Shown in pieces: positions 6,983-13,269 of a stretch of 24,000 bases of DNA. The stretch is from Paenibacillus agilis. Its GTDB lineage: Bacteria; Bacillota; Bacilli; Paenibacillales; Paenibacillaceae. Position numbers and translations under genes: made by a program. The notes beneath the pieces were generated by a model that was not told where the DNA came from, ran no database searches, and saw nothing but the letters and a program-made list of their open reading frames with translations. The stretch is from positions 1,090,782 to 1,114,781 of the forward strand of contig NZ_VNJK01000001.1 in the NCBI RefSeq assembly GCF_007786455.1, read 5' to 3'. The number at the start of each line of letters is the position of its first letter. The stretch's first letter is position 1.

Positions 6983-7011
6983 TTGACTGCTAGGAATAAT
7001 GTGGATAATAT
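6983..7011 (+). promoter_or_regulatory. Sigma-A-type promoter upstream of the sulfotransferase leader
   Basis: TTGACT (6983-6988), 17-nt spacer, TAATAT (7006-7011). Confidence 0.5.
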
Positions 7012-7056
7012 AATCCCAATACATTTACATAGGCAACAGCCGATTGGATCACCAAA

Positions 7057-7110
7057 GGCTCATGTATCTTTTAAGCTTTCAAGCTGATAGAGAGACATGA
7101 GTCTTTTTTA
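7057..7110 (+). terminator. Intrinsic-terminator-like hairpin inside the leader (attenuator, or the end of a small RNA)
   Basis: ggctcatgtatct (7057-7069) pairs with agagacatgagtc (7091-7103), with one mismatch and one G-T pair. There is an inner AGCT..AGCT helix. TTTTTT (7104-7109) follows, only 30 nt before ATG 7140. Confidence 0.55.
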
Positions 7111-7139
7111 TTTCCTAGAGAGTGAGAGGAGTATGAAAT

Positions 7140-8582
7140 ATGGGACATCCTACGATTTATCCAACGGGAACAACGGTTTACAAGCCAGAGCAGGCATGGA
7201 GTGGATATACACTGTATCAAGCGGCAGATACGGGAGCGCTCCTTATTGATATGAATGGTCGAGAGGTTCATCTTTGGAAAGGGCTGCGTGGATTTCCAAA
7301 CAAGCTGTTGCCTGGCGGTTATGTACTTGGAAGTACGGCACAACGTGATACAAGATACGGGTTTCAGGATGAAAAAAACTTAGTTCAAGTCGACTGGCAT
7401 GGCAATATTGTCTGGAAGTTCGACCGCTATGAATGGATTGAAGATCCCGACAATCCAGCGCAGTGGATGGCGCGTCAGCATCATGATTATCAGCGTGAAG
7501 GCAATCCTGTCGGTTATTATGTGCCAGGGCAGGAGCCGAAGGTAGATGCTGGTCGTACGCTTCTGCTTGTCCATAAAAATGTAACTCGTCCGAACATTTC
7601 GGATAAGCTGCTGCTGGATGATGTCCTTATTGAAGTGGACTGGGAGGGAAATATCCTCTGGGAGTGGGCGTGCAGTGATCATTTCGATGAACTGGGCTTT
7701 GATGAGCAGGCGAAGGAAGTACTGTATCGCGACCCGAACACGAGATTCTTTGGTGCGAATGCAGGGGATTGGATGCATATTAATTCCGTTTCGGTATTAG
7801 GTCCGAACAAGTTCTACGATGCTGGCGATGAGCGTTTCCATCCAGACAATATTATTTGGGATGCCCGCGAGTCTAACATTATTGCCATTATAGACAAGCA
7901 ATCTGGGAAGATTGTATGGAAGCTGGGGCCGAATTACGACACAGAGGAAACGAAGCATCTCGGCTGGATTATTGGTCAGCATCACGCGCATCTTATTCCG
8001 AAAGGATTACCTGGTGAAGGGAATTTGCTCGTATTTGATAACGGGGGCTGGGCAGGCTACGGTGTGCCAAATCCAGAGTCTGCGGACGGGCTGAGGGTAG
8101 CTCGGCGGGATCATTCTCGTATTTTAGAAATCAATCCAGTAACGTTGGAGATTGAGTGGCAGTATACGCCGACTGAAGCGGGATTTCAGGCTCCGCTTGA
8201 TTCTTATCGTTTCTATAGTCCATATATTAGCTCGGCGCAGCGTCTTCCTAATGGCAATACGTTAATTACAGAAGGGGCTGACGGTAGAATTTTCGAGGTG
8301 ACTCGGGAGCATGAACTGGTGTGGGAGTATATTTCTCCTTATAAAAATCAACGGAATGCCAATATGGTCTATCGGGCATATCGTGTGCCTTATGAGTGGG
8401 TGCCTCAGCTAGAACAGCCAGAAGAGGTTGCTATTTTGCCGATTGATGTGGCTGATTTCCGCTTGCCAGGTGCGGCTCCGCGAGGAGCGATTACAGCCGT
8501 TGAAGTAGAAGGTACAACAGCAGAATATGCTGAAGGAGCGTTATGCGTGGCAAGAATCGATGAAACGGAGCGTAAGGAATAA
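7140..8582 (+). CDS. Aryl-sulfate sulfotransferase (ASST) family beta-propeller protein, cytoplasmic type
   Basis: The N-terminus MGHPTIYPTGTTVYKPEQAWSGYTLY and internal GDWMHINSV, QHHAHLIP and LVFDNGG recall the ASST family. There is no signal peptide. The SD sequence GAGGAG lies 8 nt upstream. Confidence 0.6.
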   Translation: MGHPTIYPTGTTVYKPEQAWSGYTLYQAADTGALLIDMNGREVHLWKGLRGFPNKLLPGGYVLGSTAQRDTRYGFQDEKNLVQVDWHGNIVWKFDRYEWIEDPDNPAQWMARQHHDYQREGNPVGYYVPGQEPKVDAGRTLLLVHKNVTRPNISDKLLLDDVLIEVDWEGNILWEWACSDHFDELGFDEQAKEVLYRDPNTRFFGANAGDWMHINSVSVLGPNKFYDAGDERFHPDNIIWDARESNIIAIIDKQSGKIVWKLGPNYDTEETKHLGWIIGQHHAHLIPKGLPGEGNLLVFDNGGWAGYGVPNPESADGLRVARRDHSRILEINPVTLEIEWQYTPTEAGFQAPLDSYRFYSPYISSAQRLPNGNTLITEGADGRIFEVTREHELVWEYISPYKNQRNANMVYRAYRVPYEWVPQLEQPEEVAILPIDVADFRLPGAAPRGAITAVEVEGTTAEYAEGALCVARIDETERKE

Positions 8583-8605
8583 TAGTTGAATTTGAAATGA
8601 ATGTA

Positions 8606-8715
8606 ACGGCTACGTTGTCCTGCTTGCAGGTGCGGCGTAGTCGTTTGCTTTTGGACCAAAACGAGTGATGTAACTGCCGGGGTTGGATTTAAATTTCAAG
8701 CAGTAGAACGTTTCA
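8606..8715 (-). pseudogene. Decayed fragment A of a second RT gene: its last ~40 codons plus stop
   Basis: Aligns by eye to 9733-9843 (the RT 3' end). The first 28 nt are identical and roughly 80 percent overall. The minus strand reads ...TFYCLKFKSNPGSYITRFGPKANDYAAPASRTT*, against RT ...TTFCAQKITSKSGSYTARFGPKTNDFTAPASRTT*. Confidence 0.6.
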
Positions 8716-8891
8716 TGATAATGAAAAGTAGACATAAAATATCTTAGATTAACGAAAAGAGTTTCCTCCGAGATAAAGTCGGTATAAGATGATAGGTACG
8801 CTTGCTAGTGAGATTTTAAGAAGGTAAATTTACTTTAATTATTAATCATATAAGTACAATAAACGTTATTTTTAGAGAGGAGGTTTTGTTG

Positions 8892-9434
8892 ATGAATCTT
8901 AGTTATATTCTATATACAGTTTTGTTGATCTTAGTATGGGTGCTATTGCTGACAGGTTTCATAATAAAAAGAAATACTAAATTCATCCGAGGGTACCTGT
9001 GGGTATCTGTGCCCTGTATCTCATTGCTTTTATTGTATTTTTGGAATACTAGCCTAAATAATTATGTACGAAGTTATTTATTCGCAGCTCACACTTATAC
9101 TTGTGAGTATTACGACAGCTTAAAACCACACTCTCTCCCTCTTCCTAAAAGAAGTGTATTAAAAGGCAAATCAGATGCTTGTTCCCCGTTTTATTTGACG
9201 TTTTCGAAAGATAAAGATGTTATTTCATTTTATGAGACAGTATTAATCGAATGGAAAAATAAAAAATTAATTTCAGGATTTCATTATGCTGAAAGGGACC
9301 ATCAATATGGTGGTAAAGAGAAGGGGTATGTTGCCTCAATCCCTGATGGAGCTACCCTTGATATATTTATTCATGTTTTGCAGGATAGTTATGAGGGACA
9401 GATGTTATCGATCCGATTTAAACGTAGTGGATAA
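8892..9434 (+). CDS. Hypothetical membrane protein, 2 N-terminal TM helices plus a ~110-aa soluble domain
   Basis: ATG 8892 lies 8 nt after GAGAGGAGG (8875-8883). The TM helices are ILYTVLLILVWVLLLTGFII and YLWVSVPCISLLLLYFW. I recognise no family. Coding is very AT-rich. Confidence 0.6.
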   Translation: MNLSYILYTVLLILVWVLLLTGFIIKRNTKFIRGYLWVSVPCISLLLLYFWNTSLNNYVRSYLFAAHTYTCEYYDSLKPHSLPLPKRSVLKGKSDACSPFYLTFSKDKDVISFYETVLIEWKNKKLISGFHYAERDHQYGGKEKGYVASIPDGATLDIFIHVLQDSYEGQMLSIRFKRSG

Positions 9435-9557
9435 TGTAAAAGTCTTCATGAATGAGATCTCGAAAGACAAATGGGCGATCATGGACCGCCTGTGCATACC
9501 TATGGAATTTCTATATACTCAAGCTCAGCGTGGCTATTATTAATAATTGAACCTATA

Positions 9558-9638
9558 TAGAAACTCAAACGCAGAATGTACATAGTTTCCTTACGGCTAT
9601 CATCTTTGCAATATACGATTTTTATTTATGGTTAATGT
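9558..9638 (-). pseudogene. Decayed fragment X of a second RT gene (motif 6-7 region)
   Basis: Aligns by eye to 9845-9925 at roughly 80 percent with a 1-nt indel. The minus strand reads P*IKIVYCKDDSRK..., then after the frameshift NYVHSAFEFLY. The RT reads PEKTKIVYCKDDSRKGNYAHVSFEFLG. Confidence 0.55.
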
Positions 9639-9683
9639 TCTCCCTATTTTTTAATATCCATAACAGGTGCTCAATTATATTGT

Positions 9684-9738
9684 AAAAGCCGTTTTCCTGT
9701 AAAAGGGGAAATAGATCATTGAAAGCGAAATCACGGCT
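9684..9738 (-). terminator. Weak terminator-like hairpin overlapping the RT stop codon
   Basis: On the minus strand, AGCCGTGATTTC (9738-9727) pairs with GGAAAACGGCT (9697-9687), forming 6-bp and 4-bp helices with a bulge. Only UUU follows, and the loop is long. Confidence 0.25.
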
Positions 9739-10696
9739 ACGTTGTCCTGCTTGCAGGTGCAGTGAAGTCGTTTGTTTTTGGACCAAAACGAGCGGTATAA
9801 CTGCCAGATTTGGATGTTATCTTCTGTGCACAGAAAGTTGTGCCTAGAAACTCAAAAGAAACATGAGCATAGTTGCCTTTACGGCTATCGTCTTTGCAGT
9901 ACACGATTTTCGTTTTTTCTGGATGAGGGGTAAGCTTGTATTGCGCTAATCTTTGCTGCAACTGGGCAAGCAGCTTTTTCGCGCTTGTTTCACTTTTACA
10001 ATGGCAAATGATATCATCTGTGTAGCGCTCGAAAGGAATATCGGGGTGTTTCTGCTGCATCCATTTATCAAAAATATGATGCAAATACACATTGCCTAGC
10101 AAAATATTGAGTTTGCTGCCTTGTGCGAGTCCTTTTTTTGATTTGACTACTGTTCCATCTTTCATTTGAACAGGTGCTATCATCATGCGATGGGTGTACA
10201 GCAATGCCCATTTGCTCCGAATATGTGTTTTCAACATCTCCATAAGCAGCCGATGGTTAATGTTTTCTCCAAACTTTTTAATATCTATGACAAGTGCCCA
10301 ATCATATCGTAAACAGCGTTCGCCTGCTATGCGTACGGCATCATCACGCGCTGGTCTTTTTTGTTTATAGCCATATGAATTGGGATGAAATAGACGCTCG
10401 AATCCAGGGGCAAGTTCATTTTTTAACAGTGTTTGTACAATAAAATCTTTCACCGTTGGAATACCCATTGGCCTCCATCCGCCGCTTTTCTTGGGGATTA
10501 CGATTCTTCGAACGGGAGAAGGAACATATTTGCCGGAGTTAAGCTCTACCCACAATTCATGTAACCGTTTGATTCGATCTTGCTTAAAATCTTCAATGGT
10601 CTGACCATCTATGCCGACCACTTTGGTTTTTTCTGATTGTCGGAATGCTTCCAACAAAATGTCCTTTGAGATTTGAAAGCGCCGCGTCTTTTCCAT
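9737..10696 (-). CDS. Reverse transcriptase, group-II-intron-like (RVT_1), free-standing, no thumb/maturase/endonuclease domain
   Basis: Motifs: VIPKKSGGWRPMGIPTVKDFIVQ (1-2), VIDIKKFGENINH (3), KGLAQGSKLNILLGNVYLH (4), RYTDDI (5), EKTKIV (6), FEFLGTTF (7). The ORF ends 25 aa after motif 7. The SD-like sequence GAGGGGGA lies just upstream of ATG 10696. Confidence 0.9.
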   Translation of the reverse strand: MEKTRRFQISKDILLEAFRQSEKTKVVGIDGQTIEDFKQDRIKRLHELWVELNSGKYVPSPVRRIVIPKKSGGWRPMGIPTVKDFIVQTLLKNELAPGFERLFHPNSYGYKQKRPARDDAVRIAGERCLRYDWALVIDIKKFGENINHRLLMEMLKTHIRSKWALLYTHRMMIAPVQMKDGTVVKSKKGLAQGSKLNILLGNVYLHHIFDKWMQQKHPDIPFERYTDDIICHCKSETSAKKLLAQLQQRLAQYKLTPHPEKTKIVYCKDDSRKGNYAHVSFEFLGTTFCAQKITSKSGSYTARFGPKTNDFTAPASRTT

Positions 10697-10739
10697 CTTA
10701 TCCCCCTCTGATCATCCATCTGAGCGATAGGAATGTACC

Positions 10740-11180
10740 AGCATATGAGAAGGTTCTCGTTTCGGTTTGTACAGTAGTCCATGTGGGGAATTGTATCTCA
10801 GGCTGCGCTGCACTATGGATTACCTATGCCAATCAAATTCCGCTAACGAGCGCTATGGACGTTATTTTCGTAAAATGATTCATTTTAGATTGCTAACGGT
10901 TGTAGTCGAGCTTATTTTAGCAATGATACCAAATGATATCGATCACACCGACAATTAAGCTCGCTGACACCCGTTACATTTCAAAATTCATCCATAAGCA
11001 CGGAATAGCCTCCGTGGCAACCGTTAGCGCAATTTTTGCTGCGTTGCTCTTTGCAGTTAGGGCAATTGACTCTCAGTCCTAGATACAATCACATAGCTAT
11101 AAGCTGCTACTACTTTTTTGCATAAGCTTTTTGCCTACGTGTAGGAAGTACCTATAAGTAAAAGGGCGAGCTCCTTTGGA
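10740..11180 (-). ncRNA. Candidate structured non-coding RNA upstream of the RT (boundaries and strand provisional)
   Basis: Nested perfect helices: 10892-10902/11018-11028 (11 bp), which encloses 10907-10914/10956-10963 (8 bp) and 10999-11004/11011-11016 (6 bp). Further helices: 10872-10878/10880-10886 and 11144-11148/11151-11155. No ORF here has an RBS. I found no convincing promoter. Confidence 0.3.
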
Positions 11181-11445
11181 GAAGAGAGCTGTGAACTATT
11201 ATTAAACATGAGCGAACTTCAAAATAATGGGTAATCAACAGGTCCAAAGTATTCCTATTTTGATAAAATGTTAAAATTAACAGAAAGATATCTCCTAAAT
11301 CATGGATATCTATAACAAATAATTGATGTATTATATTGTCTCGTTTCGTTCCTCATGGTAGTCTACATCGGAGATATCCATAACATATAGCGCTACAGCA
11401 GCATTTTGTATGGCGGCCTAGATGAGCGAGAAGGAGAAGATTACG

Positions 11446-13269
11446 ATGAAGAAGAAAGTCGCTATTATTTTCACCTGCATCTTACTGATCACAACAATTG
11501 TTACGTATGCATGGAATGCAAGTAGTGCCAGCCCTCGTGTTATCCCTATCCCTCCAGCGGGTAAGACGTCGGAAACGGAGAAGAGTGTAAGTGTAGAGGC
11601 CATTGTTGGCAGTAATATGCCAATTGAAGAGAAGGCAAAAAAGATTGTCGTTCTTATGAATGATAAGGAAAAAATAGGCCAACTTGTCATGTATACGCCT
11701 ACGAATCAAGCCGATCCCTTTTCAGAGAAGATGATAAATGAATATAACGTGGGCAGTGCCTTGGTAACGGCAACGATGAATAATACGGTTCACACGGCTC
11801 AGTTCAACAACCAATTACAACGGTTAGCGTCTGAAACCCGATTAGGCCTCCCGTTATTCATTTCTGGTGATATGGAATATGGAACGGCTCAGAGAGTTCC
11901 TGCTAACGGTACCATTTTGCCTAGACAGATGGCGATTGGAGCGACACGTAATATCGGATACGCGGAGCAAGCAGCACGGATAACGGCCAAGGAAGCCAAA
12001 GCATTGGGCTTTCAATGGAGCTACTCACCGGTCGTAGATGTAAACTCCAATATAGAGAATCCGGTTATTGGTGTACGTTCATTTGGAGAGCAAACTCAAA
12101 TGGTCTGCGACATGGCTGTTGCACAATTGAAAGCGTATCAAAGTGAAGGTGTCTTATCCAGCGCTAAGCATTTTCCAGGACACGGGGACACTAGCTTTGA
12201 CACACATACAACACTTTCTAAAGTATCCTACAGCGAAGATGTATTGAGACAAGTGCATCTCCCTCCATTCAAAGCAGTCATTGATCAAGGCATTGAATCG
12301 ATTATGACATCCCACATTATTATTGAAGCGATTGACTCAACACTTCCAGCAACGTTATCGAAAAAAGTTCTAACCGGCCTATTGCGTGAGGATATGGGGT
12401 TTAAAGGAATGATTATTACCGATGCGATGGTCATGGACGCCATATCAAAAAACTGGGGAGCGGGCGAAGCCGCCGTTATGGCTGTTAATGCAGGTGCAGA
12501 TATAGTAATGGCCAATGGCTCAGCAGCAGATCAATTCGAGACGTTGGATACTTTATACGGAGCATTGCAGGCCGGGAAAATAGAAAAGAGTCGTGTTGAT
12601 GATGCAGTGACACGAATTATTACTTATAAATTAAAAATGAAAACGTTTGATAACCGTTATGTTGATGTTGATCGGGCTGTAAAAATAGTCGGAAACGGAG
12701 AGCATTGGGATCGTTCCTATCAGATGGCTTTGGACTCAATAACGCTGCTCAAAAATGAAAACGTGCTTCCGTTCGATCCTAAGTCGAATGAAAAAACACT
12801 TGTCGTAAGTATGGCCTATGCGGAACGGATTGCAAAGATGGTTAGGGCAGTAAGCAAGGGCGAAGTATTGTCTTATCAAGCGGCACCAGCTTGGGGAGAA
12901 CCATTAGATGCAACGGAAGAGGCTATTCAAGGAGCTCTTGAAAAAGCAAAACAAGCCGATCGTATTATTGTATTTACACAGTCAGATCGCAAAATTCCAA
13001 AAGGCCAAGTAGATCTTGTTAACCAGCTAGTCGCTACAGGTAAGCCTGTTGTGGCGGTTGCTCTCGGCAATCCTAGCGATATCGTAAGTTATCCAAATGT
13101 GAAGGCTTATCTAACAGCTTATGCCGCTGATACATGGTATTGGATTACTCCTGTCCCGATCGCTTGGAATGCATCAGTTGAAGTTATATTCGGCACAAAT
13201 CCAAAGGGGAAACTGCCTGTTACATTAAGTAAAGAGTACCCAAGAGATTTTGGACTTAGCTATCGCTAG
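11446..13269 (+). CDS. nagZ: Secreted glycoside hydrolase family 3 beta-N-acetylhexosaminidase (NagZ/YbbD-like)
   Basis: The KHFPGHGDTSFDTHT signature and GFKGMIITDAM are present. The N-terminal signal sequence is MKKKVAIIFTCILLITTIVTYA. I prefer ATG 11446, in frame with the listed 11422, with AAGGAG (11431-11436) 9 nt upstream. Confidence 0.85.
   Translation: MKKKVAIIFTCILLITTIVTYAWNASSASPRVIPIPPAGKTSETEKSVSVEAIVGSNMPIEEKAKKIVVLMNDKEKIGQLVMYTPTNQADPFSEKMINEYNVGSALVTATMNNTVHTAQFNNQLQRLASETRLGLPLFISGDMEYGTAQRVPANGTILPRQMAIGATRNIGYAEQAARITAKEAKALGFQWSYSPVVDVNSNIENPVIGVRSFGEQTQMVCDMAVAQLKAYQSEGVLSSAKHFPGHGDTSFDTHTTLSKVSYSEDVLRQVHLPPFKAVIDQGIESIMTSHIIIEAIDSTLPATLSKKVLTGLLREDMGFKGMIITDAMVMDAISKNWGAGEAAVMAVNAGADIVMANGSAADQFETLDTLYGALQAGKIEKSRVDDAVTRIITYKLKMKTFDNRYVDVDRAVKIVGNGEHWDRSYQMALDSITLLKNENVLPFDPKSNEKTLVVSMAYAERIAKMVRAVSKGEVLSYQAAPAWGEPLDATEEAIQGALEKAKQADRIIVFTQSDRKIPKGQVDLVNQLVATGKPVVAVALGNPSDIVSYPNVKAYLTAYAADTWYWITPVPIAWNASVEVIFGTNPKGKLPVTLSKEYPRDFGLSYR

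Follow-up and report, generated by a model that had tools for sequence, protein, structure and literature searches.

We found that a single gene in a 24-kb stretch of the Paenibacillus agilis genome (24,000 nt of contig NZ_VNJK01000001.1, hereafter the window) encodes a 319-aa free-standing reverse transcriptase (RT) that has the fingers and palm of a group II intron RT, no thumb and no surrounding intron RNA, and that belongs to a small family of equally short proteins. We consider it fairly probable (about 0.6) that this gene descends from a group II intron RT that was domesticated, is kept as a host gene in its thumb-less form, and encodes a distributive polymerase with relaxed sugar selectivity.

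A fingers-and-palm reverse transcriptase of group II intron type

The translated open reading frame (ORF) contains IPKKSGGWRPMGIPTVKD, QGSKLNILLGNVYLH, YTDD and FEFLG, and Pfam recognized RVT_1 as its sole domain (E=2.4e-30, aa 67-288) besides a marginal RdRP_1 match, with no match to PF08388 (X/thumb, GIIM). In profile classification the closest model was that of the group II intron RTs (NCBIfam TIGR04416, group_II_RT_mat; 273 bits, cutoff 300), which aligned over positions 2-282 of 353 and left the X/thumb part alone uncovered, while the models of defence-associated RTs (DRTs) and retrons stayed far under their cutoffs. The group II-specific blocks RT0, 2a and 3a were present together with RT1-7, as seen both with TIGR04416 and in the alignment to 6ar1, 5hhl and 7uim. 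An earlier note on this DNA had described a free-standing RT with a YTDD box that lacks the thumb/X domain, the D domain for binding DNA and the En (endonuclease) domain, and Pfam, TIGR04416 and the alignment bear this description out; the motifs it quoted are also present, and its distance of 25 aa from motif 7 to the stop is only approximate, since FEFLG ends at aa 285 and 34 aa remain after it.

The AlphaFold2 (AF2) model of the 319-aa protein had a confident fingers/palm fold (mean predicted local distance difference test score, pLDDT, 88.8) whose last element is the RT7 beta-hairpin, and residues 311-319 are predicted to be disordered. The top structural matches of this model in the PDB were GsI-IIC RT (7k9y/6ar1, TM-score 0.76) and then thumb-less constructs, and G2L4, DRT9, retron RTs and RTs of diversity-generating retroelements (DGRs) were poorer matches. 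The sequence search of the PDB also gave group II intron RTs as the best matches, including the thumb-less laboratory constructs 5HHL and 5HHJ and GsI-IIC RT. In addition, aa 149-289 of the window RT reached the Pfam gathering score of viral RdRP_1 (PF00680; 25.1 bits vs 23.9, E=9e-6), a match that is also found in a minority of full-length intron proteins and is not specific to the short family.

The short proteins form one family with a common end point

The nearest database proteins to the window RT were 304-319 aa long (46-89% identity; Paenibacillus, Brevibacillus and Cohnella), and the next-nearest were RT+GIIM intron proteins of ~415 aa (~49% identity); the closest homologues are thus not intron-encoded proteins (IEPs) of the usual 420-600 aa. 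A second profile search, with the profile built on divergent members, extended the short family to ~20 protein clusters of 296-319 aa from Paenibacillus, Cohnella, Brevibacillus and Bacillus (including Bacillus sp. EB01), and the profile scores separated the short family (at least 391 bits) from the intron proteins (at most 354 bits). When 1.8 billion representatives were searched exhaustively, the short family came down to a handful of sequences, and the scan of a genome collection with the family profile gave at least four extra family loci among the matches listed, the others being ordinary introns.

In the alignment the short proteins all stopped at, or a few residues from, a conserved RFxP; at precisely this point the intron proteins run on into the X domain (NFSPAxS...). 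Neighbour-joining of the RT region placed 17 short sequences in one monophyletic group with a bootstrap support of 97/100, and all 19 with 100/100, which implies that the thumb was lost once, in a common ancestor. The earlier claim that the short C-terminus is native to a family is therefore borne out by the common end point and the monophyly. The ending ...PASRTT, by which a search for homologues had been suggested, was found only in the three closest Paenibacillus orthologues, and the others end 9-12 aa earlier at RFxP; the 12-aa tail beyond RFxP is restricted to the window RT, P0001 and P0002. One protein of Bacillus sp. EB01 (P0273, L093 6001-6816) has only 271 aa, ends after RT6 (KTKIVYGQDGL) and carries Ala at the gate position described below; it may be a copy in decay, in which case some lineages would be able to lose the family.

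Three elements of the sugar pocket are altered

Previous studies showed that F143 of a group II intron RT (F150 in G2L4), the counterpart of Y115 in the RT of human immunodeficiency virus 1 (HIV-1), stacks on the sugar of the incoming deoxynucleoside triphosphate (dNTP), and that this Phe and the RT4 Pro jointly form the pocket of the second YxDD residue (PMC12337344). Such a Phe is called the 'sugar gate': the F155V mutant of Moloney murine leukaemia virus (MMLV) RT gains NTP incorporation, and gate mutants of the non-LTR RT BoMoC and the group II RTs EuRe and GsI kept cDNA synthesis but lost non-templated addition (PMC8857657).

In our 270-sequence alignment, the gate column held F in 166 and Y in one of the 167 full-length relatives, and in the 19 short proteins it held G in 16 and A, S and F in one each; short members retrieved later had G, or A in one case. 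Gly143 of the window RT aligned on F143 of GsI-IIC RT (6ar1) in an ungapped stretch. The second residue of YxDD was A in 156/171 full-length relatives and T, N, I, M, L or V in the short family (YTDD in the main clade, W/H/F-I/M-DD in divergent members only), and the L-S-P of RT4 in intron RTs was replaced by L-N-I in the window and by L-N-F in most members. The catalytic residues D138, D227 and D228 and the fingers residues R63, K69 and R75 were invariant in the short family. All three elements of the sugar pocket have thus changed in concert relative to intron RTs (F143 to G, YADD to YTDD, SP to N-I/F). No other observation says as much about function as this joint change of three contacting positions under purifying selection. 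We infer from it that the sugar selectivity is altered and, by analogy with the mutants described above, probably relaxed.

The gene is maintained by selection in unrelated contexts

The gene order GH3 glycosidase / RT / arylsulfotransferase was common to the window, Paenibacillus sp. SC116 and P. arenosi, and the order MarR/SDR / RT / TetR to four Cohnella species. The short family as a whole occupied at least eight unrelated chromosomal contexts, with other members after metH, near clpP/sigL, beside hprK, and next to glycosyltransferase and 5'-nucleotidase genes, and no neighbour gene was shared across the family contexts examined. The short RT was usually flanked by divergent and convergent genes, and therefore its gene is monocistronic.

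The pairwise ratio of nonsynonymous to synonymous substitution (dN/dS) was 0.09-0.12 for orthologue pairs in Paenibacillus and 0.08-0.14 for those in Cohnella; the dS of the RT (0.5-0.9) matched that of the GH3 and arylsulfotransferase genes beside it, and it was saturated between genera. Judged by these values, the RT is passed on vertically, and purifying selection acts on it as strongly as on an ordinary enzyme gene, which excludes both a pseudogene and an active retroelement.

Some neighbourhoods are worth recording on their own account. In Brevibacillus fluminis (L004 9238-13768) the RT lies beside a McrBC-like AAA_5 + DUF2357/PDDEXK_7 pair, in a Brevibacillus-type member (L091 1500-7320) it lies beside a cluster of TerB_N/TerB_C, a BrxC/BrxD-like ATPase and a DEAD helicase, and a DNA_alkylation (PF08713) repair gene is nearby in both. 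Two short RTs that are paralogues (P0121, P0272) share one metagenomic contig (L092 3580-5242 and 7641-8531): the first follows GT4 and GT2 glycosyltransferase genes at a distance of 26 nt, and the second is convergent with a UshA-like 5'-nucleotidase gene, as in L085. Further, the 553-aa database protein P0122 is a GT2-RT fusion by Pfam. In this divergent subclade the RT may be functionally linked to glycan or nucleotide-sugar metabolism, or the pattern may be a gene-calling artefact.

Intron RNA, a thumb ORF and signs of mobility were searched for

Rfam gave no group II intron RNA in the whole window at gathering score, none at E<=10 in 7000-13000, and none in 10 family loci even at E<=1, while in the positive control, a full-length relative (L013), group-II-D1D4-2 upstream and Intron_gpII (domain V) downstream were both detected; the earlier note had likewise seen neither a domain V/VI-like sequence nor an intron 5' end near the gene. 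The sequence upstream of the window RT had no similarity to the upstream (intron DIII/DIV) sequence of 15 full-length relatives. Moreover, tblastn with the X domains of four full-length relatives found no X/thumb ORF in any frame of the window or of 12 family loci (positive control, E=1e-26).

Multiple or variable insertion sites were not seen, the gene being at the same position in the three Paenibacillus and the four Cohnella species, and the sole extra RT copy in the window was an adjacent decayed duplicate. No Cas Pfam family was present in any family context examined, no CRISPR or tandem repeats were present in the window, and the PADLOC Cas1_IIIb match to the window RT spanned the RT part only.

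A promoter-like element precedes the gene

In 12 of 13 loci, in unrelated contexts, variants of ACA[AG][AT]C-N16/17-CATA precede the start codon by ~45 nt (those of L088, L089 and L091 were recognized by eye and not by the strict pattern). The fuller motif is (T)GG-N5-G[C/T]ACA[A/G][A/T]C, 16-17 nt, CATA[T/C]; the sequence around it is unrelated between loci, it occurred once in the window and 0 times in shuffles, and it differs from the intron sequence that precedes full-length IEPs. In position and spacing the motif corresponds to a promoter, and we regard it as a putative one. Compared by eye, the LexA (Cheo) box and the sigma-54 (GG-N10-GC), sigmaG and sigmaF promoters misfit it in spacing or bases, and only a CATA-type -10 with an ACA-rich -35 at 16-17 nt fits, in part. 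A -10 box of the CATA type is typical of the mother-cell sporulation sigma factors sigmaE and sigmaK, and not of sigmaA, in the Bacillus consensus, and the named hosts of the short family are all organisms that we take to be endospore formers.

Comparison with known systems

The window RT shares the NTE/RT0, RT1-7, RT2a and RT3a blocks with the ~415-aa RT+X group II intron RT/maturases, and it is 27-29% identical to GsI-IIC RT (6AR1/7K9Y), with identical catalytic Asp and triphosphate-binding residues. Unlike the intron RT/maturases, however, it has no X/thumb and no flanking ribozyme, and it is single-copy, syntenic and not mobile. It resembles G2L4 in being free-standing, host-maintained, of group II lineage and without intron RNA, with a second YxDD residue that is not Ala and is beta-branched or bulky, whereas G2L4 keeps an elongated thumb (dimer interface, DNA binding), the gate Phe F150 and the RT4 Pro P213 (PMC12337344). 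G2L4 has YIDD and a retained maturase motif, in contrast to the YTDD and missing thumb of the window's main clade, and its RT3a plug has a 9-aa insertion; in the RT3a region the short family aligns to the intron proteins almost gap-free, with one single-residue gap column in one member. G2L4 is confined to Proteobacteria (PMC4244168) and is 21% identical to the window RT in the structural alignment; the short family is much closer to true intron RTs.

AbiK, Abi-P2, DRT4 (UG15) and Cas6-RT-Cas1 also have a natural RT fingers/palm module without a canonical thumb, and synthesis by AbiK, Abi-P2 and DRT4 is template-independent (PMC9508834, PMC12783706); unlike the window RT, these four are proteins of 500-1000 aa with a cis domain, helical/alphaRep or Cas1, at the thumb position. 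In sequence the window RT is only remotely related to these four (Drt4, 38 bits; 7kft, E=1e-15), and its NCBIfam scores were 64 bits for Drt2 (cutoff 390), 63 for Drt3a (200), 38 for Drt4 (450), 14 for Drt5 (550) and 48 for retron_St85_RT (235). Neither the window RT nor the family contexts examined held a DRT-type C-terminal accessory domain, a conserved accessory gene or a DRT-type non-coding RNA (ncRNA), and Rfam found no retron ncRNA in the window.

The thumb-less laboratory constructs (5HHL, 5HHJ; 283-305 aa), which are the top PDB sequence matches (E about 1e-31), likewise consist of fingers and palm only and demonstrate that such a module folds stably alone, but they are truncated intron proteins that keep FF, SP and YADD, and not natural genes. 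As a functional analogy only, Mycobacterium smegmatis DinB2 has a smaller residue in place of the aromatic gate and uses ribonucleotides proficiently (PMC4176160); unlike the window RT, it is a Y-family DNA polymerase of unrelated fold with full DNA-binding domains, and the ribonucleotide use demonstrated there is a prediction here. The classical G2L3-5 have retained domain X, and G2L1/2 are CRISPR-linked (PMC2602772, PMC4244168). We found no published description of a short thumb-less family in the literature searched, and the short family is a rare, previously undescribed variant of the domesticated group II intron-like RTs that lies outside every named group.

To our knowledge, domesticated group II intron RTs are few (CRISPR RTs, G2L4, some DRTs), and each characterized one revealed an unexpected polymerase chemistry. 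The short family is the minimal case, a fingers-and-palm module ~50% diverged from active intron RTs, with nothing replacing the thumb, that was retained under purifying selection over dS>1, and it serves as a natural experiment on the abilities of a thumb-less RT. The natural replacement of the gate Phe by Gly can be probed directly by a G143F swap, and the protein offers a compact 35-kDa scaffold near the TGIRT enzymes, whose substrates may include ribo- or modified nucleotides. The database label 'group II intron reverse transcriptase/maturase' is wrong for the short RTs as to the maturase part.

Proposed role and competing explanations

We propose that an ancestor in endospore-forming Bacillales lost the ribozyme and the whole X/thumb domain in one event, and that the host has kept the RT gene ever since, single-copy and monocistronic and with a conserved promoter-like element of its own. 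The protein would still be a metal-dependent nucleotidyl transferase. Without a thumb to clamp the primer-template, it would act distributively on single-stranded or minimally paired 3' ends, and it may need to oligomerize or to have an unlinked partner. Lacking the aromatic sugar gate, it would discriminate poorly against ribonucleotides or other 2'-substituted nucleotides. Its role would presumably serve the host and not retromobility. A stationary- or sporulation-phase function is our leading guess, because the -10 box of the upstream element is of the CATA type, and phage defence is the main alternative.

Several points weigh against this proposal. The biochemical function that we assign to the window RT is a prediction from its sequence, and the argument on sugar selectivity leans on mutants of other RTs. 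The change of the RT4 Pro to Phe in most members might rebuild the gate from the other side, which leaves the direction of the change uncertain, and BoMoC F534G lost activity as well as non-templated addition (PMC8857657), so that the Gly could merely weaken dNTP binding. The early-branching short protein P0133 retains FF and SP, and therefore thumb loss and pocket change are separable; its deep branching may also be long-branch attraction. The upstream motif was not recognizable in L087 and had no clear match in the second copy of L092 or in L093, and a sporulation promoter, which fits completely in three loci only, is a lead and not a result. Finally, the family is rare and patchy in distribution, which suits a defence gene equally, and two members adjoin defence-type genes, which suits a defence gene as well.

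A single-gene anti-phage defence RT of the DRT kind, which would make a single-stranded or untemplated polymer on infection as AbiK, Abi-P2 and DRT4 do, is the strongest competitor, and we hold it to be possible but rather unlikely. Every natural RT-type polymerase without a thumb whose biochemistry has been characterized serves in defence or CRISPR adaptation (PMC9508834, PMC12783706), and a gene that stands solo and is rare and patchy (~20 clusters) agrees with such a role, as do the McrBC-like AAA_5 + DUF2357/PDDEXK neighbours in Brevibacillus fluminis and the TerB / BrxD-like / DEAD cluster in L091. PADLOC RT profiles do match the window RT, but the best of them are generic RT or RT-Cas1 profiles, and with the NCBIfam models Drt2-5, whose cutoffs are 200-550, it scores only 14-64 bits. 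In Abi and DRT4 the helical/alphaRep domain that replaces the thumb holds the product and supplies the priming residue, whereas nothing follows RT7 here. Moreover, gate mutants lose untemplated addition with dNTPs (PMC8857657), most contexts of the short RT are housekeeping regions and not defence islands, and the gene is syntenic across species with a dS equal to that of its neighbours.

More tentative still is a switch of nucleotide substrate, in which the thumb-less RT derivative would polymerize ribonucleotides or 2'-substituted nucleotides in a cell-cycle- or sporulation-regulated host function. It is suggested by the fact that all three sugar-pocket elements changed together while the catalytic core remained strongly constrained, and, if true, it would represent a new biochemical class of cellular polymerase of retroelement origin.

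The earlier note had also proposed a compact module of a new class, in which the RT copies an ncRNA encoded in its flank, and our results make this improbable. Retrons, DRT2 and DRT9 are known to use an ncRNA upstream of the RT, an upstream element of ~40 nt is conserved family-wide, and the 725-bp non-coding spacer upstream of the window RT contains an element of ~300 bp (10790-11089) that folds into a long hairpin whichever strand is taken (z -3.75 and -3.91, about -3.8 either way). However, the hairpin is common only to the window and P. arenosi, where a segment upstream of the RT (L003 7588-7825) is 89% identical to it, and it is absent from SC116, whose RT is equally constrained; the RT therefore cannot depend on it. 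The element has terminal inverted repeats of 16 nt (ATTGTATCTCAGGCTG / CAGTCCTAGATACAAT), a further inverted repeat of 32 nt inside and substitutions without codon periodicity, and it looks like an insertion of a miniature inverted-repeat transposable element (MITE). The upstream spacers of the other members are 110-260 nt long and unalignable outside the promoter-like box, the downstream gap in some members is only 10-25 nt to a convergent gene (25 nt in SC116), and Rfam matches are missing in the window and the family loci. Across the family members no conserved structured flank was found, and the part conserved family-wide is too short for an ncRNA and had no compensatory pairing by eye. 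As a separate observation, the GH3-RT spacer of P. arenosi (L003 ~7250-7560) contains degenerate repeats, GCAAGGCAGAGCAC / GCGTAGC, which are absent from the window and SC116.

We give slightly less credence to recruitment of the palm to non-nucleic-acid nucleotide chemistry in glycan synthesis, for example the handling of nucleotide-sugars or nucleotides in a spore-surface polysaccharide pathway. The remodelled site is indeed the sugar pocket, and in a divergent subclade the RT lies 26 nt past GT4 and GT2 genes or beside UshA-like 5'-nucleotidase/metallophosphatase genes (L092, L085), with P0122 as a GT2-RT fusion; but the association is limited to that one subclade, the main clade, to which the window RT belongs, lacks neighbours of this kind, the fusion may stem from faulty gene calling, and the template- and triphosphate-binding fingers residues are all conserved as in true polymerases.

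The least credible explanation is a decaying group II intron remnant, that is, a functionless ORF fragment left after deletion of the 3' half of the intron, for which the ~49% identity to intron proteins, a TIGR04416 score just under the cutoff, the plainly decayed RT pieces at the window locus and the truncated look of P0273 (271 aa) could be cited, and against which stand the same end point and intact ORFs across divergence down to 46% identity, a dN/dS of 0.08-0.14 with dS saturated between genera, invariant catalytic residues, the lack of intron RNA remnants in the regions searched, and a true pseudogene copy next door that displays what neutral decay looks like at this locus.

Features of the locus and the decayed tandem duplicate

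The features of the RT locus are listed in Table 1.

Table 1. Features at the RT locus, in positions of the 24-kb window.
Feature	Position	Strand	Remarks
Thumb-less group II intron-derived RT gene, NTE/RT0 to RT7, fingers + palm only	9737..10696	-	319 aa, ATG start
RT3 motif D138-I-K-K-F142-G143, catalytic Asp and Gly replacing the sugar-gate Phe	10268..10285	-	Ungapped alignment to 6ar1
RT5 catalytic box Y225-T226-D227-D228	10013..10024	-	D227 and D228 invariant in the family
12-aa clade-specific C-terminal tail (TNDFTAPASRTT), predicted disordered	9740..9775	-	pLDDT <50 for residues 311-319
Ribosome-binding site AGAGGGGGA, 4 nt ahead of ATG	10701..10709	-	Read from the sequence; GGGGG conserved in the alignment
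Promoter-like element TGGACTACTGTACAAAC: ACAAAC 10770-10765, 17 nt, CATATG (CATA 10747-10744)	10741..10781	-	Putative promoter
Decayed duplicate fragment, ~aa 124-148	9628-9699	-	78% nt identity to 10253-10326; in-frame stops
Decayed duplicate fragment, ~aa 263-284	9558-9622	-	83% nt identity to 9845-9910; in-frame stops
Decayed duplicate 3'-terminal fragment, ~aa 281-319 + 18 nt past the stop	8592..8735	-	Adjoins the arylsulfotransferase gene, ancestral position

In the SC116 and P. arenosi loci the RT stop codon lies 20-25 nt from the end of the arylsulfotransferase gene, and the window carries ~1.13 kb extra between the two genes. A second, decayed copy ending at the same stop codon had been noted there (8606-8715), and we confirmed it and detected two further pieces that had not been listed (9628-9699 and 9558-9622). 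By tblastn, aa 287-319 matched 8711-8613 (64% identity, E=4e-8) with the stop at 8610-8612; at the DNA level the repeat 8592-8697 / 9719-9824 was 81% identical, and the 3'-terminal fragment had 88% identity to the intact gene, against 81-82% to the orthologues. The three RT pieces are collinear on the RT strand. The simplest history is a lineage-specific tandem duplication followed by decay of the downstream copy: the fragment sits at the ancestral site and is collinear with the other pieces, which identifies a decayed tandem duplicate whose stop codon was inherited by descent. The shared stop is therefore not independent evidence for a native short C-terminus, as had been argued from it.

A template repeat/variable repeat (TR/VR) pair of a DGR was rejected as a reading of these repeats, for the 120-nt repeat is the RT's own 3' end and its 28 mismatches fall on all bases without adenine bias; no DGR accessory (Avd) ORF was present. 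The RT pieces are interrupted by a segment unique to the window genome, which contains a 182-aa ORF (8886-9434, forward strand) with a hydrophobic N-terminus; it had no Pfam match and no relative in the orthologous or related loci, and it is apparently a lineage-specific insertion.

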